Origin: a virus | Taxonomy: Duplodnaviria; Caudoviricetes | IMG/VR virus record: IMGVR_UViG_3300037484_000296 | Span: 1 to 64,000 of that record | Length of the DNA: 64,000 nt | Reading direction: 5' to 3' (one strand) | Shown here: positions 5,416 through 58,211 of the stretch, in pieces | Layout of the letters: each line of letters begins with the position of its first letter | How positions within the stretch are numbered: the stretch's first letter is position 1 | The notes under the pieces: generated by a model | Database searches by the model: none | Told to the model about the DNA's origin: nothing | The model's input: only the letters and a program-made list of their open reading frames with translations | Translations under genes and position numbers: made by a program

Positions 5416-6013
5416 TAAGCGCAGGCACCGCAGAAGACTTTCCCGGATTAAGCCAACGGTGGTCGTGGCATTTTGGGGACGGCGCAGAGCAACCAGCGGG
5501 GACATATAATTACCCTGACCCTGGGATTTATCTTTTCGGCAATGGCGAGAAGTTGGTAGTCAATAAAAAGACCACAAGATATCTTAATCGCAGAATTAAG
5601 AGGTTAAGGAGGCAGGCAATCAAGATGCAAGCGCGGAGAACGGCAGAATGGATTGACGGTGAAATTTTAAAAGGGTTCACTGATTTTGTTTCAAGGTATC
5701 TTTCTGAGGAAAAATCATGCAAATAGAATCATTCACGCTTACCGGGAGTGGGGAGAGAATTAGACATGCGGGAGAGCCGCTTTCGAAAACCAATATAACT
5801 CAGTATATCGCTGAATGCGAGCAGGAGCTTGTGGCGCATGATACGTCCAGAGAAGATAAATGGTTTGTAATTTCTCCAAATATGCTTAGACTGATTAAGT
5901 TCGGCCCAACATTAGCAGAAAGAGAATCATGGATCAGGTCAAAGGCGTATCGCCTCAAGTTGCGCGGCGGGGCGCGGAAGGCGTATATCCGCAGCCGGAG
6001 AAATAGCAGATAG
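5412..6013 (+). other. two hypothetical CDS (5412-5726; 5717-6013)
   Basis: Overlapping start/stop coupling. Confidence 0.5.
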
Positions 6014-26826: not shown

Positions 26827-29800
26827 ATGCCGATTGTATCGGATAAAGAGTTTGAAGGGATAAGTTCTGCAAAATCAGGCCAGATTCTTGATGAGTCTGA
26901 CTTTATGAAAATTGCCCCAAATGTCCCCAAACCAGATACGGGAGTTGCGTCTATGGAAGCTCAGGCGTCTACCATTCCGCAGCCTAAGCCTGTTGCGAGC
27001 GCTATGCCTGATTTGTCCACTCCCGTACAGCCGACAAGCGCAATGCCGGACTTGAAACCCGACGCGTCCCCTGTTTCCATAAAGAATGTCGCCAAAACAT
27101 TAGGACAGGGCGCAATGGACGTAGCGGGCGGGGTATCCTATCTTTCGCAATTTGTAAATCCTATGGATCTCGTGCTGAAAGCCGCAGGCCGTAAAACCCT
27201 GGGCGAAAGCGGAATGGAGCTTTCCGAGAAGGCAAGTAAGGCGCTGGAAGAATCTATTCCTGAAGCAGAGCGCCCGAGGCCCATTTTCTCCGAGAATACG
27301 AAAATCATCGAACCGATACTCAAGGGAGAACTTCCGACCATTGAGCTTAACCCTGAAGCAAGATTCAGCGACGTATTCATGCAGGGAGTACGGCAGGTTC
27401 CCCAATTTTTCGGAGGCATTGCGGGAAAATCTGAAAAGGCCGTATCTCTTGCGAATACGATTGGACAAAAGGTACTTCCAAAGCTCGGATCAACGCTTGA
27501 GCAGAAAGCTATCAGTATGGCCGAGAAGCACCTTGCTAAAACGGGGATGAATCTCGGTACAGATGCCGCTCGCAAATATGCAGAAAACATAATCGGGCAG
27601 ACCATCATGCAGGCCGGCATCGGAGCGGCGCAAACCGGAGGCATGGACGCTGCTTCAGCCTATACTGATGTAATGAACATGAAGCCTGAAGAGCTTCAGA
27701 GTACAGAATACAAGGACACCTATAACGATCTTCTTGCAAAAGGGCAAAACCCGGAAGACGCTAAGCGAATTCTTGCCAACGGGATTGCAAATCAGGTTTT
27801 TATTAAAACGGCGCCTTCGGGCATTCCGTCTCAACTTTTGGAATTTGTTCTTCCTGAAATATTGCACGGCGGCAGGCTGAAAAGGTCAGTCAAAGGATTC
27901 CTTGCAGGCGCTCCCGGAGAGGCTTTGCAGGAAGGGTACGAGCAGAGAATCCAGAACGTTGAAGAGCAACGGGCTAATCCTGCAATAAATCCAGAACAAG
28001 GCGTAGCAGAATCAATGCTGCTTGGTGGGTTAATGGGCGGTCTTCCGGGTGCCGCGCAGGGATTAAAAGGACGTCCAGAAGCCAAAAAACCGTATGTGCC
28101 GAACCTTGAGAATCAATATTCCCCCGTCTTCCCGGATCTCACGATACCCCCGGCAGATAAAGCCGCTCCCGCAGCCCCGATAGCTGACTTCGATCTTACC
28201 TCCATGCAGCCGACCGAGCGAGGCCAGAAGATAATTTCCGCCATGCCCCAGATGCAGGCGCTCAAGGAAACCACGGCAGCATGGCGACAGGAAGCGGCTC
28301 AGGGCCGTCCGGCACCGTTTACCGGGCCGGGAACGGCAATGCCGCCCATAGATTTGACCGCGCAGGATATCTTGAGCCAGCAGGCAGAACCGCAGGGCCA
28401 GGAAGAGCGTGGCAGGCCCGTTCCGGTAATTCCGTCATATTCTACAGAGCAATTTGAGCCCGGAACGATCATGGACGCGGAAATTCCGACAAGGGAATTT
28501 ACGCCGCCTCCGCCCTCACAATTCGCTTCATCGGTGGAAAAAGCAAGAGCGAAGCAGGGGCCACGTAAACCGCTTGAAATGGCGAGGCCGACAGAAACGG
28601 CCATGCCTGCTTTAGAAGGCGAGATTATGTCCCCGACAGCGAAGCAAGGGGCCGTTCCTTCATTGGAAAGCAACATCATCGAGGGGAAGGCGATTGAAGA
28701 GGATCGGGAACTTACAAGAAAGATAGATCAGGCCGCGTACAAGGCGGAAATGCCGAAGTCGGAAGCTCAAGCCTCTGCCGGAAACTATCGTCAAGGCGCT
28801 ATCGTGCCTGTTCAGGGCCTCAATTTCCGGGCTGAAACCCCGAGGGGCATGTTCCGGGGAGGAAAGAACAAAGACACCGGGGAAGTTTGGCGAACCAAAA
28901 TGGAAGCTCATTATGGAAAATTAATCGACCTCCCCGGCGCTGATGGGGATGCAATGGACGCCTTCATCGGGCCGAAACCGACCTCCCCGACCGTCTTTGT
29001 GGTAAATCAGGTCAACCCGAAGACGAAAGCCTACGACGAAAATAAAATTATGATCGGATGGGATTCTCTCGAATCAGCCAAACAAGCCTATATGGATCAC
29101 TACGCAAAAGGCTGGCAGGGCTTCGGCGGTATCGTTCCCATGACCGCAGAGCAGTTGAAGCAGTGGGCGACCAAAGAGAACGTGAAGAAGCCTGCCCCGA
29201 TGCTCCCGGCACCGGAAGCGAGGAAGGCGCTACCAGCGCCAGAAATTGCAGGGAAGCCGACAAGTGCAATGCCGGAAAGCTTACAATTGCCGCCCGAAAG
29301 GTTGTCAATTCCCGATCAAAAGGTTGTCAAAAGGCCGGTCCAGGCAGAGCAGAAGGCACTCCCAGCGCCGGAGCCCGTTTCACCGCCCGTTGAAACCGCC
29401 CCGGACAGTGAAACCAAGCCCTCTTTCGACGAACCCCGCGCAAAGAAGCTGATCGAAAAGCAGGGCATGATTTACAAGGGAACGCAGGAAGACGCTGACG
29501 GGAACCCGGTGGACGTTTTATTTAACGATCCTCAGACCGACAACGCAACCTACACGCTCCCGGTCGGCAAAGTAAACGCCATGACCATCGCCCGGAAGAT
29601 CCGAGAGAAGAGGGCAGAGTTTGCGAAAGCGCAGAAACCACAAGAAAAGGTTGTGGAACCGGAGAAAAAAGAAACTCCAATTGTCAAGGAATCCTTACAA
29701 GTTGGCTCCACCGTCCGCGTAGGGAACTCCCCTGAAGTGCATACTATTGAGAGAGAACTTCCCCAAACTGAATCCGAAAAGGAACTCGGAGAAAAGTATT

Positions 29801-32800
29801 TTGACGTAAAGAACTCTAAAGGAGAGATCGATACTTACGAGGCAAAGGATTTAAAGCCCGTAAAAGTAGCGGAGAAAAAAGAGGAGGTGGAAGGCGGCTC
29901 GAAAGTCAGGACGATCCACGCTCTCATTGAATCCGGCGACAAGGAAATTACCCGCAAGGAAATAGCGAACCTCTACGAAGTGAAGCAGAAGCAGCTTTAC
30001 AAAGGCCACATCATGACCGCCGGGGATGTTATCAGGGATTACCTGAAGCCGAACGGGATTAAGGTTGTGGGGAAGAAGACGGAGAAGCCATCTATAAAGA
30101 CAACTTTAACAGTTGCCGGGAAAGGAGGGACGCCGAATGAAAAAGCAGTGCGACAAGAAGATGCCGATGATGCCGCAGCCGAAGCCGGGCAAAAAGAAAA
30201 AGTAGCGACGACAACAGTAAAGTTGGGCGGGAAAACTGAGAAAACGGCCATGCCGGACACCGCCCAGACTTCACATTTTCAAAAACTCAAAAAAGAACTT
30301 GCCTCGCTTAAAGGTAAGAATGACGAACAATCTCAGAAGCGCAGGGTTAACATCCTAGACGAACTCGAATCGTACCAGGAAGAAACTGCGCCTACTCCTG
30401 AAAAAATAAAGTCAGACAGGCAGGCCGCGGATGAATTTTTAAAGAAAAAACTCACTGAATCCCAGATAGCCGGGGTAGCCGTCCGTCAGCAGGAAGAAAT
30501 CCCGAAAGAGGTTGTGAAGGATGCAGTCGAGGCCGCTCCCGGAACGACCGCAAAGGAACTCAAGGCTCAAAAGAAATTCCTGATCGAGCATGTTGACGAG
30601 GCGATTAAGGATGCGCCGGAAGAAATCGAAGGGCTTGACCGAAAAGTTCAGCAAATTAATGACATAAATAATAAAGCAAAAGCGGCTTACGACAAAGCTG
30701 CGAATCTTCGCCACTACAAGAAAGATGAAGATCAAGTACAAAAGTTGTTCTCTGAACGAGAAGCATTTCATAGGCAGGCGCGTGAGATTCAGGCAACTAT
30801 CCCATCCGTAACCATAGAAGTCCCAAATGACGGAAACTTTACCGTATACAATGATAAAGCTACGCTCAAGAAGTTCAAAGAAATTGTAGCGAAGCAATTC
30901 CCGACGACGCCCGAGAAGGCGAAGAACTTGACGCAGCCTAGTGGGAAGGCGAGGGGATACCGAGCTCCGTCAGAACTGGAAGAGGGTATAGACTTCAAGC
31001 TGAATGGAAAGCCTGCATATACTAACGGGCACCTTTTGCTTCTTGGAGAGACAAAGGCGATCCCCGAAACTCTAGCGAAAAGATGGGGCGGGGCAGACAA
31101 AGAGACAAACCAGGAAAACCGCGAACGTCTCGCGGAGCAAGCAAAAAGACTTTTCGCGGAAAACGCAGAAAAAGCGAAGTTGCCCGTTGGCAAGATCAAA
31201 TTCGTCGCGATTGACGAAAAGCCATACAATCCGGCAGATAAGAAGAACGACTTCCCTTACGGAGTGGCCGATTATCCAATTAGAGGGGAGAAGCAAAGTA
31301 CTACAGTTCTTATTTCTGGTGACGTGTCAAACGCGATCAGCACAGACTATTACCAGCACATCATAGACCACTACCCAGATGCAACGTTTAAAATCGGCGT
31401 GGAAATGTCTAAGGGCGACAATATATCCCCGGTCGGCGTCTACAGTAAAGGCAAACACGCAGGCATAGTTATGCCGTGGCGCTCGTCCGACGCGGTACAG
31501 ATTGCCCGCGAACACATGCAGGAAGAAAGCGCAAGCGGAAAGACGGAGAGCGTGAAGGCCCCTAAACAGGAAGAGATAAAGTCCGAGGCCCCGAGGGAAG
31601 CGCCAAAATACGCCTCAAGGGATTCCGACTTCACCAAAATCTCCGACTATATAAGCAAGAACTACGGCTCAAAAGTCAACATTCCCGCCTTCACTTCCAA
31701 GTTGCGGGAAATGGTAAAAAGTGCTACAATTACGGCAGAAAACGCGGAGAAAGTAATAGCTCGCCTGAAAGCAACAGGTGAAGTTACTATCCCCAAGTCG
31801 CAAGTGCTTGAAATAGCGGCAGAAGAGGGAAGCAATGTCACAAGACAAATCAAAGCCGAAAGATCGGGAGATAACTTGCGGGTCCCAGAGTCTTATGGCC
31901 CGCTCGAACTCGAAGCATTCCGCTTGGTTGAAGAAGATTTGGGGCGCACCATTGCCCCCTCTTCCAGAATCAGCCCAATCCAAAAACAAGTAGCAGGCGA
32001 ATGGGAAAAATTCACCGGCACGAAGATTCTTTTTGCCAACAGCAATAACATTCCTTTCGATGGTGCAGTCCCGAAAAAGGGTTACATCATTGTCTCTGAC
32101 GCACTCGATACGCCTCAACTCCTTTCAAAAGTAATCGGTCACGAACTGTTCCATAACATCGAACACGTAGCGAAACTGTCTCCTGAACTCGAAGCCAAGT
32201 ATAAGAACTTTTCCGAGATTGCCAGAAGGCTTATAACCGACGCCAAAGTAAAAGAGTTTATGGAGGTCGAGAATAAGAAGCGTGTAAATCGTCTCGGCAT
32301 GAAGCAGCTTGAGACCGTCGAAGAGGCATGGAGCGAATATGGCGCTCACATTCTGGGAGACGCGATTCGAGACAAGCGATTCTATGAGCGCATGTATCAG
32401 CAGGATCGTAACCTATTTGAAAAGTTTGTTGACTACATTGTAGGAGTATTCAAGAAATTAAAAATCCTTTCTCCTGATGTGGTAGAGAGTGAATATTACT
32501 CCCCCGAACAGGCGGTAAGGCTTATTAATGAATCTTCGGATTTGTTTGCTCAGTATCTTCGGGTAAAAGATGATTTCGGGGTAGTGTCCGGGGAGAGTGC
32601 GCAGGGTCCGGCGTATTCGACGAAACCAAATCAGAAATCACTTGATTCAATTGTGGGCAAATGGGAAAAACTTGGAGTCGCAATAGACGCTTTTGACTAT
32701 CGCAACAAAAAGAATACTCGCATCCCTCGTCAATTATTGTCGATTAACCGAATTGAGGTAGACAGAGACAAGCGCAAGCGCGGACTCGGCACTATGGCGA

Positions 32801-35800
32801 TGCACGACCTGACAGATTTTGCTGATGAGAATGGATTGCGCATCGAGCTTTCCCCGGATGATAGTTTGGGGGCTACGTCAAAAGGCAGGCTCAAAGAATT
32901 CTACAAGCGTTTCGGATTTGTAGAAAACAAAGGGCGCAATAAAGATTTCCGCACTTCGGCAACAATGTACCGTGAAGCTATCACCGCTGAAGGCCAACCC
33001 CTCTACGCCGCTCAAGGCATAGCAGGAAAAGGTATGTCTAAACACGATGCAATTTTCGAGATGAAGAAGTTGGATATCGACTTTGACAATCTGGAAAATT
33101 TTGTCGTTGTGGAAAATGAAGCGAGACTTCCCGAAAACATTCAGAATGATATGTTGTCTAAAGGCCTTTCTGGGACTATTGAAGGGGCCTATGACGCTGA
33201 CGCGAATGCTTTCTATATCATCGCGGGGAATATAGCCTCGGAGAAAAGATTGCAGCAAGTTGTTCAGCATGAGTTAGTTCATAAGGGTCTTCGTAACGTT
33301 CTCGGTCCCAGAATCGAACCCATATTCACCGCGATAGGGAAAAAGTACAGAAACGAAATTCGGGAAATTGCAGACGAATATAACCTGAACGTAAACAAGA
33401 AGACAGAAATGCTCACGGCAGTAGATGAGTTTATAGCCCGATACGGCGAAGAGTACAAGGAACAACCGCTAATCAAACGAATGATCGCAATAGTCCGTAG
33501 CTGGCTTAGGAACCACGGCTTCACAGTAGACTGGTCAGACAACGATATTCTTAACCTTGCCGGTGCCGCCCTTAAAGCCGAGGGCATGGGAGAAGGGGTA
33601 AGGTACTCGTTTGCCGGGAAGAAAGCAAAGGGATTCAACGAGGCTCAAGGGAAGTTCTCCGACCTTGCGGACAGGCAGGAGAGGTTTGAGATTGATGATA
33701 ACAAGGCAGAACTGCAAAATATTAAACTTGATAGCGAAGGAGTAGCGAATAGAACTATTTTACTTTCTGAAGTGCTTAGCCATGCCGAACTCTTTAAGGC
33801 GTATCCTGAATTTAAAAGTATGCTGACAAATATCAGTATTGACCCTAGCCTAGAAGAGAGCAATGGACGATTTGACGAGGGAACGCCTGACACTAAAAGG
33901 TATTTTGGCCGCGAACCTGAAATAACAGTGAATGCTCGTAATTTGGAAGAAGCAAAAGATGTCCTGCTGCATGAAATACAACACGCACTTCAAGTAAGGG
34001 AGAATTTCGCAAAGGGCGGAATGCCAACGGTGGGGGGAGCAACGGAGTTGAAAGACCGCTTTGAAGAAATGCAAGACGAGTATAATCGTTTGAAGAAAAA
34101 ACTGTGGGCCGAGCGAACGACAAGAGAAAATGCACGATTTGGTACGCTTGAGAATGAAATACGATTGCTCGCCAAGAGACTTGAAGGAGAATCAGTTGAT
34201 CGATATCGCCGCCTCTCCGGCGAAGAAGAAGCCCGTCGCGTCTCCGCTCGCGCCGACATGACCGCAGAAGAAAGGCTTGGCACTCCTTACGAACGTACTG
34301 ACCTTAGAGAAGGAGAAGAGAGGATCGTCAGGAGAGAGGGAGGGGTTGCGGAATCTAAAGAATCTGGTAAAATACCCCCCATGACCCCAAAGAAGGGGGC
34401 GGGCGAAAAACCCACTGAGAAAAACCCTGTAACGCCCGGAAGTGGGAATCAAGTTTATCGGTCGCGAGGTCCTGAAGATGCGCAATTAATGCGCGAAGAA
34501 GACCCGAACGGAAGTCTTGCAAACTACGATAAGCAAAGTCAGCGTGAATGGCTACGCGGCGCCAACCCCCCGTCGGATGGTAAAATTACGCTGTATCGCG
34601 CAACGCCGGAAGGAAAAGAAATTGCAGCGGGGGATTATGTAACAAGCAGCCGCAAGTACGCCGAGGACCATATTAAAAACAATCTCGGAGGTGAGGGTAA
34701 GATATCGCAAATCAGCGCAACGCTTGATGATATTTATCCTGCCGATGGGCCGGGAGAGTTTTGGTACGCTCCAAAAAACATCCTCACTGAAAAACCCGAG
34801 AGCAAGCCCGAGGGTGGGAAGTGGACGGCAAAGGGATGGGTAGTTGATTTTAACCCACAGCCTATACTTGATAAGTATGGCCTCAAAAATGGCGATGAAG
34901 ATATTTTACAAAAATTCGCAGGTGAAGGCGGGTTTATAAGCGATCTTTCTCGCTCTCAAGGGGAAAGGTACAACGGCTTAGAGCAGCAAGGTTTTATAGA
35001 AAGGAAGCATCAGGACGTTGGCCCTGGGGAATTAATGGGACAAGGTTTCCCGGCCAAAGAAGTTGATAGGATGATATTGACTGACAGGGGAAGAGAACTC
35101 TTGTCAGGGATTAAGCGTGTCCACCGGGAAGCGGAGAAGAAATTTTTCGATCAATTAGCGTCCTCTGACTCCCCCCGGTCGCCACAGTCGGGCGACCAAG
35201 CAGCACTCTCACGTTCATTTCAGGAAGGAGAAGAAAATGTGCAAGGTAATGAAGGCTTGCCAGAATCCCAACCCGGAATGGGTGAGGTTTATGGAGAGCC
35301 TGGCGCGGGAAGAGAGGGAGTTAATAAACTCAGGCCCGCTTCTGTCGGGAGCGAGCAAGGAGATAGACGAGAGGATAGAACTACTAGAGGCGCTAATGGG
35401 CCGATACTTAGCAACCCGTCCTTCCGCAAATGGTTTGGAAACTCTGTAGTCACCGTGGATGGGAAGGCGGGATCGGAGCCGCTGGTGGTGTATCATGGAA
35501 GCCCGATAAAAGGGTTTGAACAATTTGATAAAAACAAAATAAATCCATATGACCCTGATGGCCCGTATAATGGATTTTATTTTACCTCAGACGAGAAAGA
35601 CGCACGGCGCTCAGGAGACTTCCCGTGGGGCAGGCCCAATACAAAAGGGGGCGGGGAAACGAGAGCGTATTATTTAGCCCTCCAGAATCCCGCGACAAGA
35701 AGCTACGCTCGTAAAGTGGCAAATGAAATTGCAAATACTTGGGAACAAAAGTATCCAGAAGCACGGTCCTTGAATGACGCCGTTAGAATGGATTTGCAGA

Positions 35801-38800
35801 CTCGTGGACACGATGGGATAATTCACGAACCCTATTTTGTTCCGAGCAAAGAAGAATTTGAGCGTAGCGGTAAGGTTTCACTGAACAAGTTTGGTCGAGA
35901 ATTAAGAAAAAGCGAAGAATATCCGGGCGGAGTGGACCTGTATAGCGGGAATGAACATATAACCGGGTATACAGATTTTAATGAAGCTGCGGATATGAAC
36001 AGGCACGGGGTGTTTATTGCTTTTGAACCCACTCAAATCAAATCCGCAACCGGGAACACTGGAGAATTCTCCCCTGAGAACCCCAATATTCTTTACTCCA
36101 AAGCCCGTGGCGCGAAGGTGGCGAGTGAGGCTACCGAAAAACTAACTCCTTATTCAGCAAAGCCGGAAAACAATATTTTCACGGAAATAGCGAGCAACCC
36201 AAAACGGTTCTACAGATCATACCGTCAGTCATTCGCGGATAACGATCTTTCTAAGCTGGAAAGATTGATCGGCCTCCCGCACTGGATTGCCAAAAATTTT
36301 GCAGACTTCGACCGGGTGATGGATGTTGAAGAGATCCGACAAGAAAACAGGGACACCCTGAGAAACGGACTGCTTTCGGCAAGGATCAAGAAGAACAAAG
36401 ACGGAATGCACGAATTCCTTGCCCTCCCGAAAGAGTCAAAGAAGAAGGTTGAAAAGTACCTACTTAAGTCCGACAAGGAAAATAGGGTGATGAATCCCGA
36501 CGAATTGAAGGGGCTCGATACCGAAAGCAAATCGGCCTACTATTCTTGGAAGCGGGCTATGGATGCGGCGCTTGAACTTCGTATGCAGTGGCTTGAAAAA
36601 ATGAACCTGCTTCCTTACGAGGACAAGTCCTGGTTCGAATCGCTCAAAAACGTCACATCTCAAAAGGGAAAGAAGAATAGGGATAAAACTAAAAAACAGG
36701 TACTTTCATCAATACCGGAAGATAGCCATAGAGCTTTCAACGAAGCCTATAACGCGGTGATTTTCGGGAGAACCGAGATTGCCAAGATGCGCAGACAGAT
36801 AGGCCGAATCAAGTTCTATGTGCCCCATCAGAGAGAAGGAAATTATGTAGTTGACGTTCATGATCCGAGAGTAGCAAAGCCGACTGAATGGAATGAGAAG
36901 TTCATGGGTCCGTGGAAGGGAAGGCTCATTTGGTCGGAAAGATCTACAAATAAGGTCAAGGGAACAGAGACCCTGCTGAGACTTCAGCAAAAGTTTCCGG
37001 GCATGAAGATGTCTGAATACGTTTCAAAACAAGTGCCGGAAGAGATTTATCAGGCGATTTCCGAGGCAGCCATTGAAAGGTTCGTCGAGGGCAGTTTGAA
37101 ACGCGCCGAATCCAAGGAAGGGGTATCTCCTGAAGCGGCTCACGCTCTTAGAAATGCGCTCTTTGAAACCGTAACCGACGACCTCAGAAAGCGGGGATGG
37201 GAGAGACACGCTATTCATCGGTCGGAAACATGGGTCGGCGGATATGAAACGGAAAATCTTGACAAGGCTTTTGTTGATTACATGTCCGGGCTGTCCGGGT
37301 CTTTGACAAAGATGGAAGCGGCGTATAGATATACTCAAGCATTAAAGCAAATCGACAAGAAAAAGACCGAACTCTACGCCTATGCGCAGAATTACGTTAA
37401 AAACCTGACCCGAAACCAGACGGATATCGACCGAAAAGTAGGAAAAGCAAAAGCGGCGGCGTTTTTCATGTATATTACCGGGAAATTAAGTATGGTGCCT
37501 ATCCAGCTTACGCAGAACTTCGTTACAGGCATTCCCCAGCTTGGACGCTACACAAGGGGCGCGGGAAGGAAATACAGCAAAGCTATGGCCGACGTAGCGA
37601 CGCAGGGGCGCATTTCTAAGCTTTCCCCTGTCGAGCAAGCTGCTTTAAAGGACTTTCACGACAAGGGATTAGATCAAGCGAAATTCTTAAACGACATTAT
37701 GGGTCAGGTAGACGGCTATACGAAGGGAGCTTGGAATAAGGTTAACCGGGGACTCGGATTGCCCTTTTTCGCAATGGAACATTTTAACCGAAAATCTGCT
37801 TTTCTTGCGGCATACCGTGTTTTTGAGAATAAAAAAAACATCGACAATGAAAAGGGCTATGACGCAGGGGCCTTTAAGAGAGCTACAGATTTTGTACACG
37901 ATACCCATTTTCAGATGGGAAGGGCAAATAAGCCTGAATTGGCAGCCGGGCCGGGGCCAGGCGGGGCATTGCTTAATGCGGCATATACCTTCAACTCCTT
38001 CTCTCACAACTTCGTACTATCTCTCGCGGATGGGTTTAGGACGGGGAACGCAAAAGAGGGGGGATTATTGGCGCTCAGAAGTCTTTTTTGGCTTACTATA
38101 CTTGGCGGAATGACCTCAATACCCTGGTGGGATGACTTTTTGGATATCATGGAGAAACAATTCGGCTGGACTACACGGGCGACCGAGCGAAAATTCCTTC
38201 GAACTATCGGCGGGGAAACGCTGGAAACTTTCGGCATGCACGGGCTCCCGGCGCTTCTTGGATTTGACCTGTCGGGAAGCATGAAAACCGCGATCCCATT
38301 CCATGAGGGAGTTTCCGAGACCGCTATGGGGGTTTATGGTGGACTTCTGGAAAAACTGTCGAGGGGGGCAAAGTCATTCAATCGGGGAGACTATTGGAGG
38401 GCGGCTGAACAGTGGAGCCCGTTATTCCTTGAAAACGCCATGAAGGGCGTAAGAATGTATGGAGAGCCTGCCACCACTCCGGGCGGCAGAATAGTTTATG
38501 ATGCGGAAGGAAATCCGATAACCTTGAACGCAAAGGAGGCCGCAGGACAATTCTTTGGGATCAGGCCGGAAAAGGTATCCACAGCGCAGGCCAAGCGGCA
38601 GGAAATGATAAATACCGTCACCTACTACGCGGAACAGAAACAAGCGATCTACGATGAATTTGCGCTGGCTAATACCGCAGAGAAGCGAGCGAGAGTCATG
38701 AAAAAAGTGCGACAGTTCAATAGTAAAGTGAAAGACTTGAAAGGAGCGGTGCCGCTTATTACGGCGGCAACTTTAAGGCAGTCAATTATGAGAAAGCGCA

Positions 38801-38844
38801 GGCCAGACAAGAGGGCTATGTTATTCGACCGGGCGGTTCAATAA
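26827..38844 (+). CDS. giant polyvalent internal virion protein (iPPase-like, three HExxH peptidase-like, GNAT-like, LPD23-like, ADP-ribosyltransferase-like, C-terminal large polyvalent-type domain)
   Basis: 4005-aa ORF; GADGDAMDAFIGP; HELFH, HELVH, HEIQH; RKRGLGTMAM..L..FAD; RFEIDD; FRKWFGNS...EPLVVYHGS. Confidence 0.85.
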   Translation: MPIVSDKEFEGISSAKSGQILDESDFMKIAPNVPKPDTGVASMEAQASTIPQPKPVASAMPDLSTPVQPTSAMPDLKPDASPVSIKNVAKTLGQGAMDVAGGVSYLSQFVNPMDLVLKAAGRKTLGESGMELSEKASKALEESIPEAERPRPIFSENTKIIEPILKGELPTIELNPEARFSDVFMQGVRQVPQFFGGIAGKSEKAVSLANTIGQKVLPKLGSTLEQKAISMAEKHLAKTGMNLGTDAARKYAENIIGQTIMQAGIGAAQTGGMDAASAYTDVMNMKPEELQSTEYKDTYNDLLAKGQNPEDAKRILANGIANQVFIKTAPSGIPSQLLEFVLPEILHGGRLKRSVKGFLAGAPGEALQEGYEQRIQNVEEQRANPAINPEQGVAESMLLGGLMGGLPGAAQGLKGRPEAKKPYVPNLENQYSPVFPDLTIPPADKAAPAAPIADFDLTSMQPTERGQKIISAMPQMQALKETTAAWRQEAAQGRPAPFTGPGTAMPPIDLTAQDILSQQAEPQGQEERGRPVPVIPSYSTEQFEPGTIMDAEIPTREFTPPPPSQFASSVEKARAKQGPRKPLEMARPTETAMPALEGEIMSPTAKQGAVPSLESNIIEGKAIEEDRELTRKIDQAAYKAEMPKSEAQASAGNYRQGAIVPVQGLNFRAETPRGMFRGGKNKDTGEVWRTKMEAHYGKLIDLPGADGDAMDAFIGPKPTSPTVFVVNQVNPKTKAYDENKIMIGWDSLESAKQAYMDHYAKGWQGFGGIVPMTAEQLKQWATKENVKKPAPMLPAPEARKALPAPEIAGKPTSAMPESLQLPPERLSIPDQKVVKRPVQAEQKALPAPEPVSPPVETAPDSETKPSFDEPRAKKLIEKQGMIYKGTQEDADGNPVDVLFNDPQTDNATYTLPVGKVNAMTIARKIREKRAEFAKAQKPQEKVVEPEKKETPIVKESLQVGSTVRVGNSPEVHTIERELPQTESEKELGEKYFDVKNSKGEIDTYEAKDLKPVKVAEKKEEVEGGSKVRTIHALIESGDKEITRKEIANLYEVKQKQLYKGHIMTAGDVIRDYLKPNGIKVVGKKTEKPSIKTTLTVAGKGGTPNEKAVRQEDADDAAAEAGQKEKVATTTVKLGGKTEKTAMPDTAQTSHFQKLKKELASLKGKNDEQSQKRRVNILDELESYQEETAPTPEKIKSDRQAADEFLKKKLTESQIAGVAVRQQEEIPKEVVKDAVEAAPGTTAKELKAQKKFLIEHVDEAIKDAPEEIEGLDRKVQQINDINNKAKAAYDKAANLRHYKKDEDQVQKLFSEREAFHRQAREIQATIPSVTIEVPNDGNFTVYNDKATLKKFKEIVAKQFPTTPEKAKNLTQPSGKARGYRAPSELEEGIDFKLNGKPAYTNGHLLLLGETKAIPETLAKRWGGADKETNQENRERLAEQAKRLFAENAEKAKLPVGKIKFVAIDEKPYNPADKKNDFPYGVADYPIRGEKQSTTVLISGDVSNAISTDYYQHIIDHYPDATFKIGVEMSKGDNISPVGVYSKGKHAGIVMPWRSSDAVQIAREHMQEESASGKTESVKAPKQEEIKSEAPREAPKYASRDSDFTKISDYISKNYGSKVNIPAFTSKLREMVKSATITAENAEKVIARLKATGEVTIPKSQVLEIAAEEGSNVTRQIKAERSGDNLRVPESYGPLELEAFRLVEEDLGRTIAPSSRISPIQKQVAGEWEKFTGTKILFANSNNIPFDGAVPKKGYIIVSDALDTPQLLSKVIGHELFHNIEHVAKLSPELEAKYKNFSEIARRLITDAKVKEFMEVENKKRVNRLGMKQLETVEEAWSEYGAHILGDAIRDKRFYERMYQQDRNLFEKFVDYIVGVFKKLKILSPDVVESEYYSPEQAVRLINESSDLFAQYLRVKDDFGVVSGESAQGPAYSTKPNQKSLDSIVGKWEKLGVAIDAFDYRNKKNTRIPRQLLSINRIEVDRDKRKRGLGTMAMHDLTDFADENGLRIELSPDDSLGATSKGRLKEFYKRFGFVENKGRNKDFRTSATMYREAITAEGQPLYAAQGIAGKGMSKHDAIFEMKKLDIDFDNLENFVVVENEARLPENIQNDMLSKGLSGTIEGAYDADANAFYIIAGNIASEKRLQQVVQHELVHKGLRNVLGPRIEPIFTAIGKKYRNEIREIADEYNLNVNKKTEMLTAVDEFIARYGEEYKEQPLIKRMIAIVRSWLRNHGFTVDWSDNDILNLAGAALKAEGMGEGVRYSFAGKKAKGFNEAQGKFSDLADRQERFEIDDNKAELQNIKLDSEGVANRTILLSEVLSHAELFKAYPEFKSMLTNISIDPSLEESNGRFDEGTPDTKRYFGREPEITVNARNLEEAKDVLLHEIQHALQVRENFAKGGMPTVGGATELKDRFEEMQDEYNRLKKKLWAERTTRENARFGTLENEIRLLAKRLEGESVDRYRRLSGEEEARRVSARADMTAEERLGTPYERTDLREGEERIVRREGGVAESKESGKIPPMTPKKGAGEKPTEKNPVTPGSGNQVYRSRGPEDAQLMREEDPNGSLANYDKQSQREWLRGANPPSDGKITLYRATPEGKEIAAGDYVTSSRKYAEDHIKNNLGGEGKISQISATLDDIYPADGPGEFWYAPKNILTEKPESKPEGGKWTAKGWVVDFNPQPILDKYGLKNGDEDILQKFAGEGGFISDLSRSQGERYNGLEQQGFIERKHQDVGPGELMGQGFPAKEVDRMILTDRGRELLSGIKRVHREAEKKFFDQLASSDSPRSPQSGDQAALSRSFQEGEENVQGNEGLPESQPGMGEVYGEPGAGREGVNKLRPASVGSEQGDRREDRTTRGANGPILSNPSFRKWFGNSVVTVDGKAGSEPLVVYHGSPIKGFEQFDKNKINPYDPDGPYNGFYFTSDEKDARRSGDFPWGRPNTKGGGETRAYYLALQNPATRSYARKVANEIANTWEQKYPEARSLNDAVRMDLQTRGHDGIIHEPYFVPSKEEFERSGKVSLNKFGRELRKSEEYPGGVDLYSGNEHITGYTDFNEAADMNRHGVFIAFEPTQIKSATGNTGEFSPENPNILYSKARGAKVASEATEKLTPYSAKPENNIFTEIASNPKRFYRSYRQSFADNDLSKLERLIGLPHWIAKNFADFDRVMDVEEIRQENRDTLRNGLLSARIKKNKDGMHEFLALPKESKKKVEKYLLKSDKENRVMNPDELKGLDTESKSAYYSWKRAMDAALELRMQWLEKMNLLPYEDKSWFESLKNVTSQKGKKNRDKTKKQVLSSIPEDSHRAFNEAYNAVIFGRTEIAKMRRQIGRIKFYVPHQREGNYVVDVHDPRVAKPTEWNEKFMGPWKGRLIWSERSTNKVKGTETLLRLQQKFPGMKMSEYVSKQVPEEIYQAISEAAIERFVEGSLKRAESKEGVSPEAAHALRNALFETVTDDLRKRGWERHAIHRSETWVGGYETENLDKAFVDYMSGLSGSLTKMEAAYRYTQALKQIDKKKTELYAYAQNYVKNLTRNQTDIDRKVGKAKAAAFFMYITGKLSMVPIQLTQNFVTGIPQLGRYTRGAGRKYSKAMADVATQGRISKLSPVEQAALKDFHDKGLDQAKFLNDIMGQVDGYTKGAWNKVNRGLGLPFFAMEHFNRKSAFLAAYRVFENKKNIDNEKGYDAGAFKRATDFVHDTHFQMGRANKPELAAGPGPGGALLNAAYTFNSFSHNFVLSLADGFRTGNAKEGGLLALRSLFWLTILGGMTSIPWWDDFLDIMEKQFGWTTRATERKFLRTIGGETLETFGMHGLPALLGFDLSGSMKTAIPFHEGVSETAMGVYGGLLEKLSRGAKSFNRGDYWRAAEQWSPLFLENAMKGVRMYGEPATTPGGRIVYDAEGNPITLNAKEAAGQFFGIRPEKVSTAQAKRQEMINTVTYYAEQKQAIYDEFALANTAEKRARVMKKVRQFNSKVKDLKGAVPLITAATLRQSIMRKRRPDKRAMLFDRAVQ

Positions 38845-49829: not shown

Positions 49830-49857
49830 TTCGCGTCTCAAGTTGGAAGCGTTAAAT
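49830..49857 (+). mobile_element. truncated attC-like right half
   Basis: TTCGCG...CAAGTTG-GAAGC-GTTAAAT; TAA of ORF 49852-50037 lies in the GTTA core. Confidence 0.35.
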
Positions 49858-51004: not shown

Positions 51005-51250
51005 TTATGGCCTTTGCTTTGCCTCTGCCTCAAACGTGGCCCGAGTTTCAACATCCCATGTTGTTATCTGCTTCCCGTCGTCAACGCGTACCGCGATAGG
51101 TTCCCGTCCAACTTTTTCATAGTGCGCCGACTCACAGATATATTTTTCGACCGCCCTCACAGCAGCATCTTCAGCGCTGTGTACCTCGTTGACCCCTGTG
51201 AGACTTTCCCATCCGTCTTCATGCCAAGATTCAATTTGGACTTTATACAT
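51005..51250 (-). CDS. hypothetical protein in putative decayed cassette
   Basis: AAGGA RBS; stop in GTTATGG core. Confidence 0.65.
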   Translation of the reverse strand: MYKVQIESWHEDGWESLTGVNEVHSAEDAAVRAVEKYICESAHYEKVGREPIAVRVDDGKQITTWDVETRATFEAEAKQRP

Positions 51251-51264
51251 TACATCCTTTCCTT

Positions 51265-51298
51265 ACGCGCTTCGCGGCGTGTCAAATTGGCGTTAAAC
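51265..51298 (+). mobile_element. truncated attC (central hairpin, L', R')
   Basis: 22 bp identical to attC at 58155 (CGCTTCGCGGCGTGTCAAATTG), then TTGGC spacer context and GTTAAAC. Confidence 0.65.
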
Positions 51299-51634: not shown

Positions 51635-52165
51635 TTAAACGTTTGTGCCTTTTAGTCGCTTTCGGCCTTCCCACGGCGCAGCGTTCATGCCCTGCATCAG
51701 TTGCATAATACGCATTGCCCGTGCTCGGCTGTCCGGTGTGTGCTCTTTCTGTCGTTTGTCGTCGTCGCCTTCGTCTGGTGCGAAAAGTCGGTTCGCGTTC
51801 ACAAAAGCGGACATCATATCTTTCAACTGTGACCGCCATGCCTTGCGGTAGTGCCTGAAACAGTCCTCAACGTCAATGGCCTGTGCTTTCGTAAGCTCGA
51901 AGTATATTGCTCTGCCACGCTTCCAGTTCGTGATTTTCTGTGTCTGACAGATGTTCATTGCGACGTGAGATAATAAAGTCACGTCGAGCTTGTCCTTGAA
52001 CGCAAACCGATACGGCTTTTTCTCCTGCGAAATGATTTGATCAAGCGTGATCCCGTGTTTTTCGCAGAGCGCGTCAAGCATTCTCTGTGCGGTTTCTTTT
52101 TCGCCGCCGATGCCTGACCGGGCCAGCGCTTCAATTTTTCTGAGTTTGTCGATTAATAGTTCCAT
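51635..52165 (-). CDS. DUF2786-like N-terminal domain protein
   Basis: IDKLRKIEALA...GEKETAQRML..L.EKHGI pattern. Confidence 0.65.
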   Translation of the reverse strand: MELLIDKLRKIEALARSGIGGEKETAQRMLDALCEKHGITLDQIISQEKKPYRFAFKDKLDVTLLSHVAMNICQTQKITNWKRGRAIYFELTKAQAIDVEDCFRHYRKAWRSQLKDMMSAFVNANRLFAPDEGDDDKRQKEHTPDSRARAMRIMQLMQGMNAAPWEGRKRLKGTNV

Positions 52166-52166
52166 A

Positions 52167-52229
52167 GTTCAACCCCGCACATTATAAAGTTGCCGGACTC
52201 CCACCGGCTGTAGACGACATACGTTATGC
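52167..52229 (+). mobile_element. degenerate attC-like site
   Basis: GTTCAAC and GTTATGC at exact 7-5-8-24-7-5-7 spacing with central GCCGG/CCGGC hairpin; L boxes pair poorly (4/7). Confidence 0.45.
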
Positions 52230-52329
52230 GCTTTTGATCCCCGCCGAATCCTTTATAGGGACGCCCCAAACGGCACACGAGGGTTTGGCACTCGCTCGGC
52301 AGGGAACAGAAACGCACAACCCGAATCTG

Positions 52330-52611
52330 TGTTACATTTTCTGTTACAATTTTGTTACGGAGAAGAGGGAAGAGGTAAAATCAGGCTTGTAAGTGATTGA
52401 AATAGAATAGAATGGGAATGGTGCCGCTGCCCAGGATCGAACTGGGATGGTCAAAGACCGAGAGATTTTAAGTCTCTTTTGCAGCGCTTTATACCCCTTC
52501 GCTATCTGCTTGATTTTACTGTTTTCCCTTTCTCCGCCAAATACTTACCGGCTTTATTCTGTCGGCTATAATTGGCCACAATTGGCCAGACCACCAACCG
52601 TCAGTGTTACA
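52330..52611. promoter_or_regulatory. attP region: 59-bp core identical in form to the 3' half of tRNA-Leu(TAA) (52419-52477, minus strand) plus flanking arm-type repeats
   Basis: Minus strand AGAGA-CTTAAAA-TCTCT, variable arm, CCCAG-TTCGATC-CTGGG, CAGCGGC-A-CCA with no 5' half; TGTTAC at 52330, 52342, 52353, 52605; AATTGGCCA at 52570, 52580. Confidence 0.85.
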
Positions 52612-52645
52612 TTAATGCTACGTTTTTAAATCGGCTACTATTCGT

Positions 52646-53437
52646 TCAAATGCCCCACTCGTTCTCTTTGGGGGCTTCTTTGCTTTCATAGATAATCCAT
52701 TGCCCTTTATGGTCTGGGCGAGGGTCCATGTGCTTATAGCCGGGCTTGCAACCTACGGGCCTTCCTTTTGAGTCGCACGGCGCGAGATCGGAAATTTCAC
52801 AGCCGCATGGCACGTCGGGACAATAAAGTCCGTCGAAACCGTTCTCCGCAAGCCATTTTTCTTTACCTGAAATCATTAAGCTACTCCTTCTCCCGCCATC
52901 TTTGCAAGGGCGGGGGATGATTGTTACTCCATATAGACGGACTTAATTTTTAGCATACGACACGCCATCGTTGCAAAACGTGAATTTGCGCCATCGTACT
53001 TGTATCCAAGCCCGACCAGAAGCGCGATGTCGGCAGTCTCGGCGATAAAATTCAGTTCCTTTCCGTCAACAATGGTCTTATATACAACTTCATCATCTGG
53101 CAATTCCGGGAACCATTTCATTGACGGTTTTTTGTTATGAAGATTATTTACTGCTTTAACCTCGACCATATCGCCTCCCGATAAGTTATTTCTTCTTCCC
53201 CAGCGCCTTCTCTGTTGCCGCCTCGACCCTTTTCTCGTGTTGTTTGCAATAGAGCTCCGCAGGGCCGTGACCGTTTGTGCGGCAGCACTGATCTGGCAGG
53301 CTCCCGCGGCCCGCGCTCCATACTTCGAAGGCGCAATATTTAGGGTTATAAGCGTACCCTCTTGGGTTGCCTCTCCATTTATTGTATCTGTACTCCCGGG
53401 CTTCTTCAAGCGTCTTAGGAGCTTCACTGTCAAACAT
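52646..53437 (-). other. three hypothetical CDS (52646-52876 Cys-rich; 52924-53169; 53186-53437)
   Basis: Co-oriented ORFs with RBS. Confidence 0.6.
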
Positions 53438-53684: not shown

Positions 53685-54851
53685 CTATTTATTATGTCGC
53701 CTAATTTCCTCTTCCTGTTTCTTCAAATATTCTAGCGTCTTATCGGCTACGCTCTTCTGTTCTTCCTCGCCGGTGATATTATACCGGGTAAACATGGAGC
53801 CCGTTTTCCAGCCGCCGATTTGCTTAATGTCTTCCTCGGGATTTCCGGCGTTCTTCATATTCTTCGCTGCGCTTCGTCTGATATCGTGGAAGATGGTTTC
53901 ATTCGCCTTTTTGAATTTGTTCTCTTTGCAGGATCGACACTTTAAATCCTCTCGCTTTTCTCCGAGAGAGAGATATTCAAAGTTGCCGCACTTTTTACAT
54001 TTGAACCGGATCTTTTGCCCGGTCCTCATTAACGCGGATTCCCATGCTGTGCGAAAATCCGTCACACGCTTCCCCTTGAGGTTGACGATATATTCACATT
54101 CAGGATATTCCCGCTCGGTTTTTTGTACCCAATCGAACACTTCTTGATAGAATTGACCTCTGAGGAAAAACCCTCGCTGTTCGTTATTCTTGGTCTCTTC
54201 CAGCAAAACGTAGCCGGTGATTTTGTTGAACTGATGGATTTTGAGCGTGAAAACTTCCGTCTTCCGTACTGTGCTAGCATATGAAATGAGTAGCGCTATT
54301 TGCAAATAGTCCGGCAGTTCCGGCTTAAACCTTAAATAAAATTCATGGTCAATGAATCCCTTTCTTACGTTGTTCTCTTCCAACTTTATTATTTTGGGTA
54401 TCCGCGCTACAAGCTGCGGCTCGTGATTAAAGCCTAAAGAAAACATTCGTTGAAGTGCCGACAGATAGCGATTTATATATGCGTTAGAATCTCCCTTGTT
54501 CTGACAAAATATAATAAATGATTTGATACGAGAGGGGATATGGATAGCTTTTTCTTTCTTGCCGAAAAACTTTTCCATGCGCTTGATTCTGTTGATTTGG
54601 CTGGTTAGAGACTTGCGATTATTGATCGTGTAATCTTCAATAAGAAGGCGGGAGAGGTCTTCAAAATCAACCTCGTCGATTTTCTTGCCCTTGTATTCAT
54701 GCTTTAAAACTTCGGCTTCGCGAATAGAAAGTTGCGCCTCGGCTTCTCTTTTTTTTGTCCACTTGGGCGATCCATGCTCATATTGTCTTTTTTTGTGCTG
54801 ATCGACAAACCAGATATGCCAGTACTTCTTGCGCCTGTATACGCCTCCCAT
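53685..54851 (-). CDS. int: tyrosine integrase with Zn-ribbon insertion
   Basis: Catalytic set R (STVRKTE), K (TKNN), HDIRR, GGWKT, Y (FTRYNI); N-terminal arm-binding-like domain; nearby attP. Confidence 0.92.
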   Translation of the reverse strand: MGGVYRRKKYWHIWFVDQHKKRQYEHGSPKWTKKREAEAQLSIREAEVLKHEYKGKKIDEVDFEDLSRLLIEDYTINNRKSLTSQINRIKRMEKFFGKKEKAIHIPSRIKSFIIFCQNKGDSNAYINRYLSALQRMFSLGFNHEPQLVARIPKIIKLEENNVRKGFIDHEFYLRFKPELPDYLQIALLISYASTVRKTEVFTLKIHQFNKITGYVLLEETKNNEQRGFFLRGQFYQEVFDWVQKTEREYPECEYIVNLKGKRVTDFRTAWESALMRTGQKIRFKCKKCGNFEYLSLGEKREDLKCRSCKENKFKKANETIFHDIRRSAAKNMKNAGNPEEDIKQIGGWKTGSMFTRYNITGEEEQKSVADKTLEYLKKQEEEIRRHNK

Positions 54852-54861
54852 AGGTTATCCT

Positions 54862-55056
54862 CTATCTGCCGTATGATTTTTTATCCCAGCACTCCTGGCA
54901 CTTATCGCCCAAAAGATGAAGGGCAAAAGCGATGATCTTTTCCCGGTCCCATTCCCTCAGGAGGTGAGCGGTAATCATTTTTTCATCATTGAGCACTTCG
55001 ACTGCTTTTCTTACTCCTGCCTCATACGATGTTTTACACATAGCCACCTCGATCAT
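54862..55056 (-). CDS. hypothetical protein in putative cassette 1
   Basis: Likely start MIEVAM or MCKTSY adjacent to attC R'' box. Confidence 0.55.
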   Translation of the reverse strand: MIEVAMCKTSYEAGVRKAVEVLNDEKMITAHLLREWDREKIIAFALHLLGDKCQECWDKKSYGR

Positions 55057-55106
55057 AACGAGTCGTTTGTTTCGGTCGCTCCGCGCAGGACAACTCGTCG
55101 TTATGC
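55053..55106 (+). mobile_element. attC: integron attC site (54 bp)
   Basis: TCATAAC-GAGTC-GTT(T)GTTT-15 nt-GGACAAC-TCGTC-GTTATGC; canonical spacing, extra base at L'' position 4. Confidence 0.75.
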
Positions 55107-55331
55107 TATAAATTTCCACATGACGTAGATCAACCCATTGTGCAAAGAATCTAAATCGCAAACACAGGAATCCTCACCATGCGTCATTAAAGTTTCCCCT
55201 CTTTTTGTTATAGCGATATAATCAGCGATATTACCTCCTTCATCGCATACCATCAACCAGAGGCCTTCTTTATCTGGTTTTGTTTCGCTATATCCTTGCT
55301 TTTTTCTGTATTCAATGCTTTTCTTTTCCAT
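55101..55331 (-). CDS. hypothetical protein in cassette 2
   Basis: AAGGAG RBS; MEKKSIEYRKKQGYSETKPDKEGLWLMVCDE...; flanked by two attC sites. Confidence 0.7.
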   Translation of the reverse strand: MEKKSIEYRKKQGYSETKPDKEGLWLMVCDEGGNIADYIAITKRGETLMTHGEDSCVCDLDSLHNGLIYVMWKFIA

Positions 55332-55351
55332 GCGACTCCTTCCCGACGAGC

Positions 55352-55405
55352 GCATAACAAAACGCTCGAAATTGACGCTTCGCGCAAGTCAGCTAAGCGT
55401 TAGAC
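55352..55405 (+). mobile_element. attC: integron attC site (54 bp)
   Basis: GCATAAC-AAAAC-GCT(C)GAAA-15 nt hairpin-AGTCAGC-TAAGC-GTTAGAC; extra C at L'' position 4. Confidence 0.85.
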
Positions 55406-55645
55406 CGCCTTCACTACGCCGTCCTCTAAAAACTTATCGAGATCTGCCATGCGGCGATAGTGAATACGCGCTCCTTTCTTGACGTAAGATATCTCATGCT
55501 TATACCGCAATTCCCTGATTGCCGTCAGCGACCGGCCAATGTAAAGCGCGGCCTCCCATTCTTCAAGGGTAGGCTTCCGAGAAATTACCGTATAGTATGC
55601 GGCTTGTTTATCCAGGGTCAATGCTTCGTATTCTTTCTGGGTCAT
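55400..55645 (-). CDS. excisionase-like winged-helix protein
   Basis: LEEWEAALYIGRS...IRELRYKHEISYVKKGARIHYRRMADLDKFL pattern (HTH_17/Xis-like); upstream of int. Confidence 0.7.
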   Translation of the reverse strand: MTQKEYEALTLDKQAAYYTVISRKPTLEEWEAALYIGRSLTAIRELRYKHEISYVKKGARIHYRRMADLDKFLEDGVVKAV

Positions 55646-55681
55646 ATTATTCCAATCCTGTAAACATTGTCAAGGTGTCTC

Positions 55682-57477: not shown

Positions 57478-57869
57478 TCGATCCTTCTTTCTCCCGGCGC
57501 GTCAGCCGGGTGTTCATCGGCGCTGCGTGGATGTAGAATTTCGTCACTTAACTTGGTGTAGCGTCACATGAGTTTTGCCGTTTTTATAGTAGTGTACCCA
57601 TGCCTGAACTTTATCTATTAACGATATTAATAGGCCGGCCGTTACCAGTGCTGCTAATACTCCGAAGTAGATAGACCAAAACATGTTATTCTCCTTTCTC
57701 GTTCCTCAATTCTCTGATATTGCAGCGCCACCGTCACGCCCGCTGTTGCGGGCGTAGCGAATGATCGCCCCATTGTGTGCTACCATCGCCGCCGAAGACG
57801 TGGTGCGGTTTCGATCTTTACGACCTTCCCGTCTGGATCGATAAGACGAATGCCTCCCTGCCTCATCAA

Positions 57870-57921
57870 TGAAAACTCTATAGCGTCCGCGCTTCGCTTG
57901 CGCGTGACGCTCGCGTTATCT
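57870..57921 (+). mobile_element. attC: attC site with degenerate R''
   Basis: CGT(C)CGCG-CTTCGCTTGCG-CGTGACG-CTCGC-GTTATCT; L boxes pair 7/7 with one G.T. Confidence 0.65.
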
Positions 57922-58143
57922 GCTTACCCGCTTTACGCGAACCGCATCTATCCAAATCTTCTTTTCGTTCGGAGTTATAATTCTTATGCGGTCCTCATAC
58001 GTTTGCTCGACCATGCCTTGCCGCCCATACCCACCGTGATCGTAAAACACAACCGACCCTTGCGGAAAGCTCATCGCCGTGGCCGCAGAAAGCAGCACTC
58101 GCGCCTTCCGTAGATTTTCGTATGCTTTTTCAAAATGTCGCAT
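57916..58143 (-). CDS. hypothetical protein in cassette 3
   Basis: ORF fills the space between two attC sites; stop in GTTATCT core. Confidence 0.7.
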   Translation of the reverse strand: MRHFEKAYENLRKARVLLSAATAMSFPQGSVVFYDHGGYGRQGMVEQTYEDRIRIITPNEKKIWIDAVRVKRVSR

Positions 58144-58154
58144 GGCAACCTCGC

Positions 58155-58211
58155 AGATAACAATAAAATCGACAACGACACGCTTCGCGGCGTGTCAAAT
58201 TGTCGTTATTC
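58155..58211 (+). mobile_element. attC: integron attC site (57 bp)
   Basis: AGATAAC-AATAA-AAT(C)GACA-18 nt-TGTCAAA-TTGTC-GTTATTC. Confidence 0.85.

Follow-up and report, generated by a model that had tools for sequence, protein, structure and literature searches.

In classical integrons, each attC site carries an R'' box of the form RYYYAAC and an R' box of the form GTTRRRY with conserved AAC and GTT, the crossover falls between G and TT, and an integrated cassette starts with a TTRRRY sequence that was once paired with its own R''. Small accessory genes with stem-loops between conserved phage genes are also familiar from the PeSL cassettes of T4-type phages and from phage morons, elements that carry promoters and whose movement is ascribed to homologous or illegitimate recombination. 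Reports of integron sites in phages are recent and cover few genomes: Qi et al. 2023 (PMC9892861) described 17 attC site clusters without an integron integrase (CALINs) in phages, showed that IntI1 recombined 5 of 6 tested phage attC sites, and reported that the cassettes of TJE1 and PH101 run in one direction in a structure typical of bacterial arrays. Furthermore, cassette insertion has been described at attG sites outside att sites, together with single attC sites lacking integron integrases (SALINs) and small CALINs (Loot et al., bioRxiv 10.1101/2022.09.11.507474). Here we examine a 545-nt block between a putative xis gene and int of a phage from sediment metagenomes, at positions 54855-55399 of the window (the whole stretch of DNA analysed, comprising the first 64 kb of one viral contig 90,267 bp long; coordinates beyond 64 kb are given as C1). 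We consider it likely that this block consists of two integron-type gene cassettes, inserted as circles at G|TT into a coupled xis-int pair.

The genes between 49 and 61 kb of the window lie on the minus strand, and the features in and around the block are as follows.

53685-54851, minus strand: int, encoding a tyrosine integrase of 388 amino acids (aa) with a Zn-ribbon insertion (PF00589 48.8 bits; phrog_1 5.5e-23).
54854-54860, plus strand: left junction GTTATCC; minus-strand GGATAAC gives a GAGGA Shine-Dalgarno sequence 6 nt before the int ATG, the predicted int ribosome-binding site (RBS).
54855-55100, plus strand: proposed cassette 1, 246 nt, with leading TTATCC, antisense orfB and its own attC up to G55100.
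54862-55056, minus strand: orfB, 64 aa, RBS GAGGTGG, stop TAG at 54864-54862.
55053-55106, top strand plus: attC-type site 1, 54 nt, with R'' TCATAAC, L'' GTTTGTTT with an extra T, L' GGACAAC and R' GTTATGC.
55101-55331, minus strand: orfA, 76 aa, RBS GGAAGGAG, TAA stop in the reverse complement of R' of site 1.
55101-55399, plus strand: proposed cassette 2, 299 nt, with leading TTATGC, antisense orfA and its own attC up to G55399.
55352-55405, top strand plus: attC-type site 2, 54 nt, with R'' GCATAAC, spacer AAAAC, L'' GCTCGAAA with an extra C, L' AGTCAGC and R' GTTAGAC.
55400-55645, minus strand: xis-like gene, 81 aa, HTH_17-type, whose TAA stop (55402-55400) lies inside GTTAGAC, the R' of site 2.
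55646-55673, minus strand: promoter-like site TTGACA-16-AATAAT with TG, just upstream of xis (11/12 in a consensus scan), the likely, predicted driver of xis-orfA-orfB-int.

Evidence for insertion comes from the empty junction. Joining G54854 to T55400, with 54855-55399 removed, gives the minus strand ...GCG GTC TAA CCT ATG GGA GGC GTA TAC, and two relatives without the two open reading frames (ORFs) read ...GTG TAA ATT ATG GGC GGT GTA TAC (contig L001; Int 49% and xis 44% identical) and ...AAA TAA ACT ATG GGA TCA GTA TAT (L013; Int 62%, xis 50%). Since both match the restored junction, a stop, three nucleotides and a start form the conserved empty state, and the left boundary of cassette 1 is fixed by it. 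The earlier note had claimed, from the sequence of this phage, that taking the cassettes out leaves a clean coupled pair; the relatives with adjacent genes bear this out at the predicted place (TAA-ATT-ATG in L001, TAA-ACT-ATG in L013), and its statements on the two sites, the xis stop in GTTAGAC, the complementarity of GCATAAC and GTTATGC, and the TAA-CCT-ATG junction all hold. The ancestral plus strand, AGG|TTAGAC, fits the GWT core of attG sites. In a third relative, L004, a 52-nt gap separates xis from int, and in a fourth, L154, a lone attC-type site occupies the xis-int junction (32.6 bits), so that this junction seems to have been struck repeatedly. In L154, ten N (L154:1385-1394) fall exactly over the expected xis stop and start of the lone site, and the junction is unreadable to the base. 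Homologues of xis lie directly upstream of int in L001, L013, L004 and L154, with synteny kept in five relatives, and the xis-like protein scores 24.7 bits against PF12728 (HTH_17), just below the 27-bit cut-off; we regard the gene as a putative excisionase in a candidate lambda-type xis-int module. An exact 20-mer of the predicted empty junction was absent from the viral contigs, blastn of the region gave no match in the phage collection, Int searches of the viral contigs gave no close relatives, and an Int scan of metagenomes gave two short contigs. Neither a skip of 54855-55399 nor a circular-cassette junction occurs in the assembled contigs of the sediment runs, a result that is uninformative on present-day excision.

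Next, we investigated the footprints that integration as a circle leaves behind, comparing the outer three bases of the leading core with those of the cassette's own R'' across 20 phage cassettes (60 positions). Complementarity was observed at 52/60 positions, compared to 13/60 for R'' against R' of the same site and 20.3/60 for random pairing (P<1e-5); the circle-integration footprint, which the earlier note had described for cassette 2, is thus general in these phages. In cassette 2 itself the leading core GTTATGC (55100-55106) is the exact complement of its own R'' GCATAAC (7/7) and not of GTTAGAC, all six cassettes of a second array at 76.8-79.8 kb have a perfect footprint, and so does the cassette at 57916-58205, where R'' AGATAAC (58155) is the complement of the leading core GTTATCT (57915). 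That single cassette unit (window 57916-58211) holds a 75-aa antisense ORF (57916-58143), and its upstream site near 57870 consists of the 3' half only and is undetected by the covariance model R1 described below. In another phage contig, L009, two paralogous two-gene modules (2411-2993 and 5097-5697) have homology that begins and ends exactly at G|TTA. Each module comprises a 50-aa gene, an 89- or 95-aa gene, a TTGACA-17-TAGTAT promoter-like site and an attC, and the pair looks like a duplicated two-gene cassette with its own promoter.

Footprints and junctions together bear on whether the 545-nt block could instead have arrived by homologous or illegitimate exchange with another phage array, the hairpins acting as linkers in a shuffling of the PeSL or moron type. 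Phage mosaicism is common, and the homology would come from near-identical site 2 copies, which are present in other viral contigs and in contigs from the same sediment: copies about 90% identical were found in two other phage contigs, L008 and L009, in a pattern scan of viral contigs, and in further contigs from two sediment runs the match is confined to site 2 and includes neither flank. However, G|TT is the exact position of both borders, the restored junction and those of the relatives agree to the base, own-R'' footprints are not creatable by homologous exchange between different sites, and the ancestral junction in L001 and L013 has no attC with which to recombine. We therefore regard such an exchange as very unlikely, and return to insertion of circular cassettes as the favoured account.

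The sites form a family with a common architecture. A three-site nhmmer profile, used as the seed, found more sites in the phage genome and in one relative, and a covariance model (R1) was then trained on phage sites only. In total, the 90-kb phage carries at least 11 attC-type sites, and similar arrays occur in related viral contigs. Across 13 aligned sites the plan is R''(..TAAC)-5-L''(8 nt)-centre-L'(7)-5-R'(GTTA..), with a variable, GC-rich centre, and with AAC in R'' and GTT in R' near-invariant; the spacers are 5 nt on both sides, except for a left spacer of 6 nt in two aligned sites (c79055 and L001). Within a site the R boxes pair through TAAC/GTTA only, the outer three bases being unpaired, and three L008 sites have ATTA in place of GTTA. 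The fourth base of L'' is unpaired and is C in 12/13 sites. Pairing in the L-box helix amounts to 90%, and 6/7 pairs show compensatory changes, a degree of covariation that 0 of 500 shuffles reached, and controls with the frame slid are 25-39% paired vs 74% for the plan. Additionally, top-strand GC skew is negative in 13/13 sites. Matches of R1 outside its training set comprise five more sites at C1 76.8-79.8 kb, which with two trained or weak ones make an array of seven, and seven further sites on one strand in L008 and L009; all sites of one array share a strand, the untrained ones included. Between xis and int, sites 1 and 2 are identical at about 33/54 positions in register by eye and at 32/54 in windows offset by one base, while 28-29/54 is the maximum for any other 54-mer of the 90-kb genome. 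They score 51.8 and 59.4 bits with R1, respectively, and the bottom strand of site 1 forms one hairpin that pairs the R box (-9.6 kcal/mol). The two sites lie 299 nt apart, seven lie within 3 kb at C1 76826-79817, and intI is not nearby, an arrangement that falls within the definition of a CALIN (at least two close attC sites, intI not nearby).

Pattern matches in L007 and L010 had no R1 match at E<=1 and were taken as chance, and most pattern matches in bacterial genome contigs failed the R1 model. The claim that decayed half sites lie at 49830, 50955, 51605, 52167, 57201 and 57870 did not hold up, as all were below R1 significance, the sole match being at 51229-51298 (E 0.26).

Hairpins of this kind might alternatively be RNA elements of the early transcript (terminators or RNase III-type sites) that never recombined and resemble attC by convergence. 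They occupy intergenic positions of the transcribed strand, a run rich in U comes after several of them on the coding strand (58155 and 55352), and attC sites are themselves thought to hold weak terminators (PMC9892861). Yet a terminator scan of the coding strand lists none of the sites, their folding z-scores are only -1 to -1.7, Rfam gives no family match, site polarity is kept where the genes are inverted, footprints and exact empty junctions need DNA recombination, and the same model finds integron arrays. An origin as RNA elements is thus extremely improbable, and the argument continues with DNA cassettes.

Upon extending the analysis to bacterial genomes, with a pattern scan followed by R1 and with IntI called by TIGR02249 at its cut-off of 265 bits, we found good R1 matches in five Gammaproteobacteria, among them two Oleispira. 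Each of the five has a bona fide IntI (TIGR02249 410-450 bits), compared to 0/14 control genomes above the cut-off. Beside two of these intI genes (420-450 bits), R1 detects 3 and 6 sites on the cassette side and on the expected top strand, and none on the far side of either gene. The phage sites and genuine attC sites therefore fit one sequence-structure model, and the strand assignment of the phage sites is calibrated by the same matches. The earlier identification of the sites as attC is upheld both by their architecture and by the ability of a model trained on phage sites to detect true arrays beside intI. Furthermore, the published extra base of attC is carried by the arm that faces the cleaved AAC of the bottom strand (Nivina 2016, PMC5027507), and the position of the extra base in the phage sites agrees with it. 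The nearest bacterial look-alikes come from marine and sediment Gammaproteobacteria.

It is less straightforward to say which enzyme works the sites. In the phage, int is the sole tyrosine recombinase and is lambda-type, not IntI; a second PF00589 protein was not found in the phage genome even at E<=10, the TIGR02249 profile gave no match there, and a second, small Xer-like recombinase was searched for in the phage and not found. Real cassette sites might be worked by an enzyme other than IntI, either the phage's Zn-ribbon Int or a host Xer-type recombinase, in which case the phage would have an integron-like system of its own and not a borrowed integron. IntI is missing from this phage and from both L008 and L009, the array lies right against the 5' end of int and its attC top strands face away from that gene as in an integron, and the inverted polarity of the cassettes is systematic in these phages. 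Against this, the int-side geometry follows automatically from a rule of crossover after the TAA stop, the main arrays (76.8-79.8 kb, 58 kb and 71 kb) are distant from int, homologues of Int occur in contigs with zero or one site (L013, L004 and L001), and L008 has eight sites and no PF00589 match, although that contig is 46% complete. Moreover, the sites share a model with attC arrays beside true intI. We judge this alternative unlikely.

With integron-type insertion as the preferred reading, the course of events can be outlined. Each cassette would once have been a circle of one small gene and one attC, entering by a tyrosine-recombinase crossover between G and TT. The target would have been the plus-strand GTT that complements AAC, formed by the xis stop TAA and the next C, so that insertion keeps the xis stop and adds genes to the operon. 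Insertion would have replaced the stop-NNN-start arrangement, spacing xis from int by 545 nt and placing two extra genes in the xis-int transcript. As the phage has no IntI, catalysis would most likely have been supplied in trans by the IntI of an integron-bearing host, and the cassettes may still be mobile at present. As the insert removes the stop-NNN-start coupling that is kept in relatives, the Int:Xis ratio could plausibly change, but tuning of Int:Xis expression by cassette number, as put forward in the earlier note, is speculation.

Several observations weigh against this reading. The phage itself has no IntI. Its sites show one evident extra base vs two or three in classical attC, and at 49-69 nt they are at or below the classical minimum length. 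Because sites 1 and 2 were both in the training set of R1, their scores do not count as independent evidence. The hairpins are no more stable than shuffled sequences (z -1.0 to -1.7); the attC signal resides in geometry, covariation and footprints and not in folding stability. The L box of site 2 pairs at 5/7 positions vs 7/7 in its near-identical L008 and L009 copies, and site 2 may therefore be decaying. The left border of cassette 1, GTTATCC, matches the complement of R'' TCATAAC at 5/7 positions and at 1/3 of the outer bases, so the caution already voiced about this border was justified. The int-proximal border, GAGGATAAC-CT-ATG, provides a Shine-Dalgarno sequence that an exact complement of R'' would not give, and this may explain the imperfect match. 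Finally, orfA, orfB and the majority of phage cassette ORFs occupy the bottom strand, antisense to the canonical polarity, a feature to which the earlier note gave no emphasis. Such cassettes would not be expressed in a normal integron, contrary to what an integron origin would lead one to expect.

We examined this inverted polarity across the arrays. In the true integron arrays, 11/11 cassette-filling ORFs lie on the attC top strand, whereas 22/30 phage sites have an ORF of at least 40 codons that ends in the TAA of the reverse complement of R'. By the usual definition, the ORF of a cassette lacks a promoter, lies on the attC top strand and has its attC after it; most phage units do not have this form. 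With the polarity inverted, the strand that resembles the recombinogenic bottom strand is the one that codes, each moving unit comprises an attC and the gene that follows it, and the crossover comes directly after a TAA stop. A single phage cassette (C1 77804-78497) has the canonical polarity and its sites keep the array strand; site strand is thus kept despite the inverted genes, and polarity is a property of the DNA and not of the RNA. No published description of an inverted-cassette arrangement was found in the literature. It is possible, if on balance somewhat doubtful, that a lineage of sediment temperate phages keeps its own pool of inverted cassettes, with TAA-C gene ends serving as harmless docking sites for host IntI or for an unrecognised phage enzyme. 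If so, accessory genes would be slotted into phage operons, including the lysogeny switch, and the cassettes would stay unexpressed in a bacterial integron and be active in the phage only. The inverted design bears on the open question of how cassettes and attC sites originate.

The remainder of the phage genome places these cassettes in context. The contig is 100% complete according to CheckV, lacks a terminal repeat and has 47.8% G+C. Outside the window, C1 76826-79817 (L011:12926-15917) contains seven attC-type sites, all on the minus strand, that bound six cassettes; two of the sites are weak (E 0.55 and 4.9), those at 78632-78688 and 79378-79434 are nearly identical, and the array stops before the small terminase gene (80560-81120). 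An isolated, strong attC-type site far from the arrays lies at C1 71374-71431 (L011:7474-7531; 44.9 bits, minus strand). Array cargo elsewhere includes a Dam methyltransferase cassette (C1 76883-77299), an N6_N4 methyltransferase in L009 and an RNA ligase. For a 176-aa gene at window 51635-52165, a close homologue forms an intact cassette in L009 (4516-5031), with a good attC site on either side; the hairpins flanking the window copy are degenerate and under model significance, which suggests fixation and decay of old cassettes.

As for the inserted genes themselves, orfA has no Pfam, PHROG or NCBIfam match and belongs to a distant family of 67-77-aa proteins (40-51% identity), found on contigs without attC sites. 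Matches of orfA to long proteins looked spurious. A word search gave no close homologues of either orfA or orfB, and orfB is an orphan, without a homologue or family in family-profile and word searches. In int, a CxxC...CxxC zinc-ribbon insertion (53880-54010) sits just ahead of the HxxR box, with weak matches to Zn_ribbon_8 and FmdB; it is present in P0001-P0003 and apparently absent in relatives of 349-352 aa. ARAGORN called no tRNA in window 52000-53000, which includes the proposed attP region (52330-52622), though a tRNA fragment would escape calling. One contig of run X1 skips 145 nt at window 57550-57696, with borders not at an attC-type site, a possible variant without the 46-aa ORF at 57544-57684. 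The structural genes include a single 4005-aa open reading frame on the plus strand (window 26827-38844).

Overall, as far as we found, cassettes inside a xis-int operon that would control prophage excision are new, as are a systematically reversed gene polarity and a crossover at stop codons, and the evidence for cassette-by-cassette assembly is unusually clean, with exact empty junctions and near-perfect footprints. The results suggest that genes can be traded by phages in the form of integron cassettes. Should phage genes be shuffled by host IntI, integrons and phages would have a gene-exchange currency in common, which would matter for how phages gain methyltransferases and counter-defence genes and for the movement of cassettes between bacteria.

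When compared with known systems, the phage sites resemble classical integron attC sites in their R and L boxes, 5-nt unpaired spacers, extra C in L'' (G on the bottom strand), variable GC-rich centre, G|TT crossover, circle footprint and negative top-strand GC skew. Unlike a classical integron, they have one evident extrahelical base and no intI, attI or Pc beside the array, gene polarity is inverted and what moves is an attC together with the gene downstream of it; the set of intI with its extra domain, attI and Pc that defines a complete integron is not present in the phage. With the phage CALINs of Qi et al. (PMC9892861) they share attC-bounded cassettes, a phage without intI and DNA methyltransferase cargo, whereas the present cassettes lie inside a xis-int operon, the sites are very short (49-69 nt), and almost every ORF runs antisense to the attC top strand, the crossover coming directly behind its TAA stop; the phage carrying them is uncultured and known from sequence alone, unlike the sites tested in that study. 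The locus is also like the attG insertions of Loot et al. in having one or two cassettes at a GWT core in ordinary DNA with a nearby promoter, the core alone being compared, and differs from them in its target, which belongs to a phage and coincides with a stop codon. Finally, PeSL cassettes and morons likewise place small, stem-loop-bounded genes between conserved phage genes, whereas the sites described here have attC geometry and G|TT footprints.

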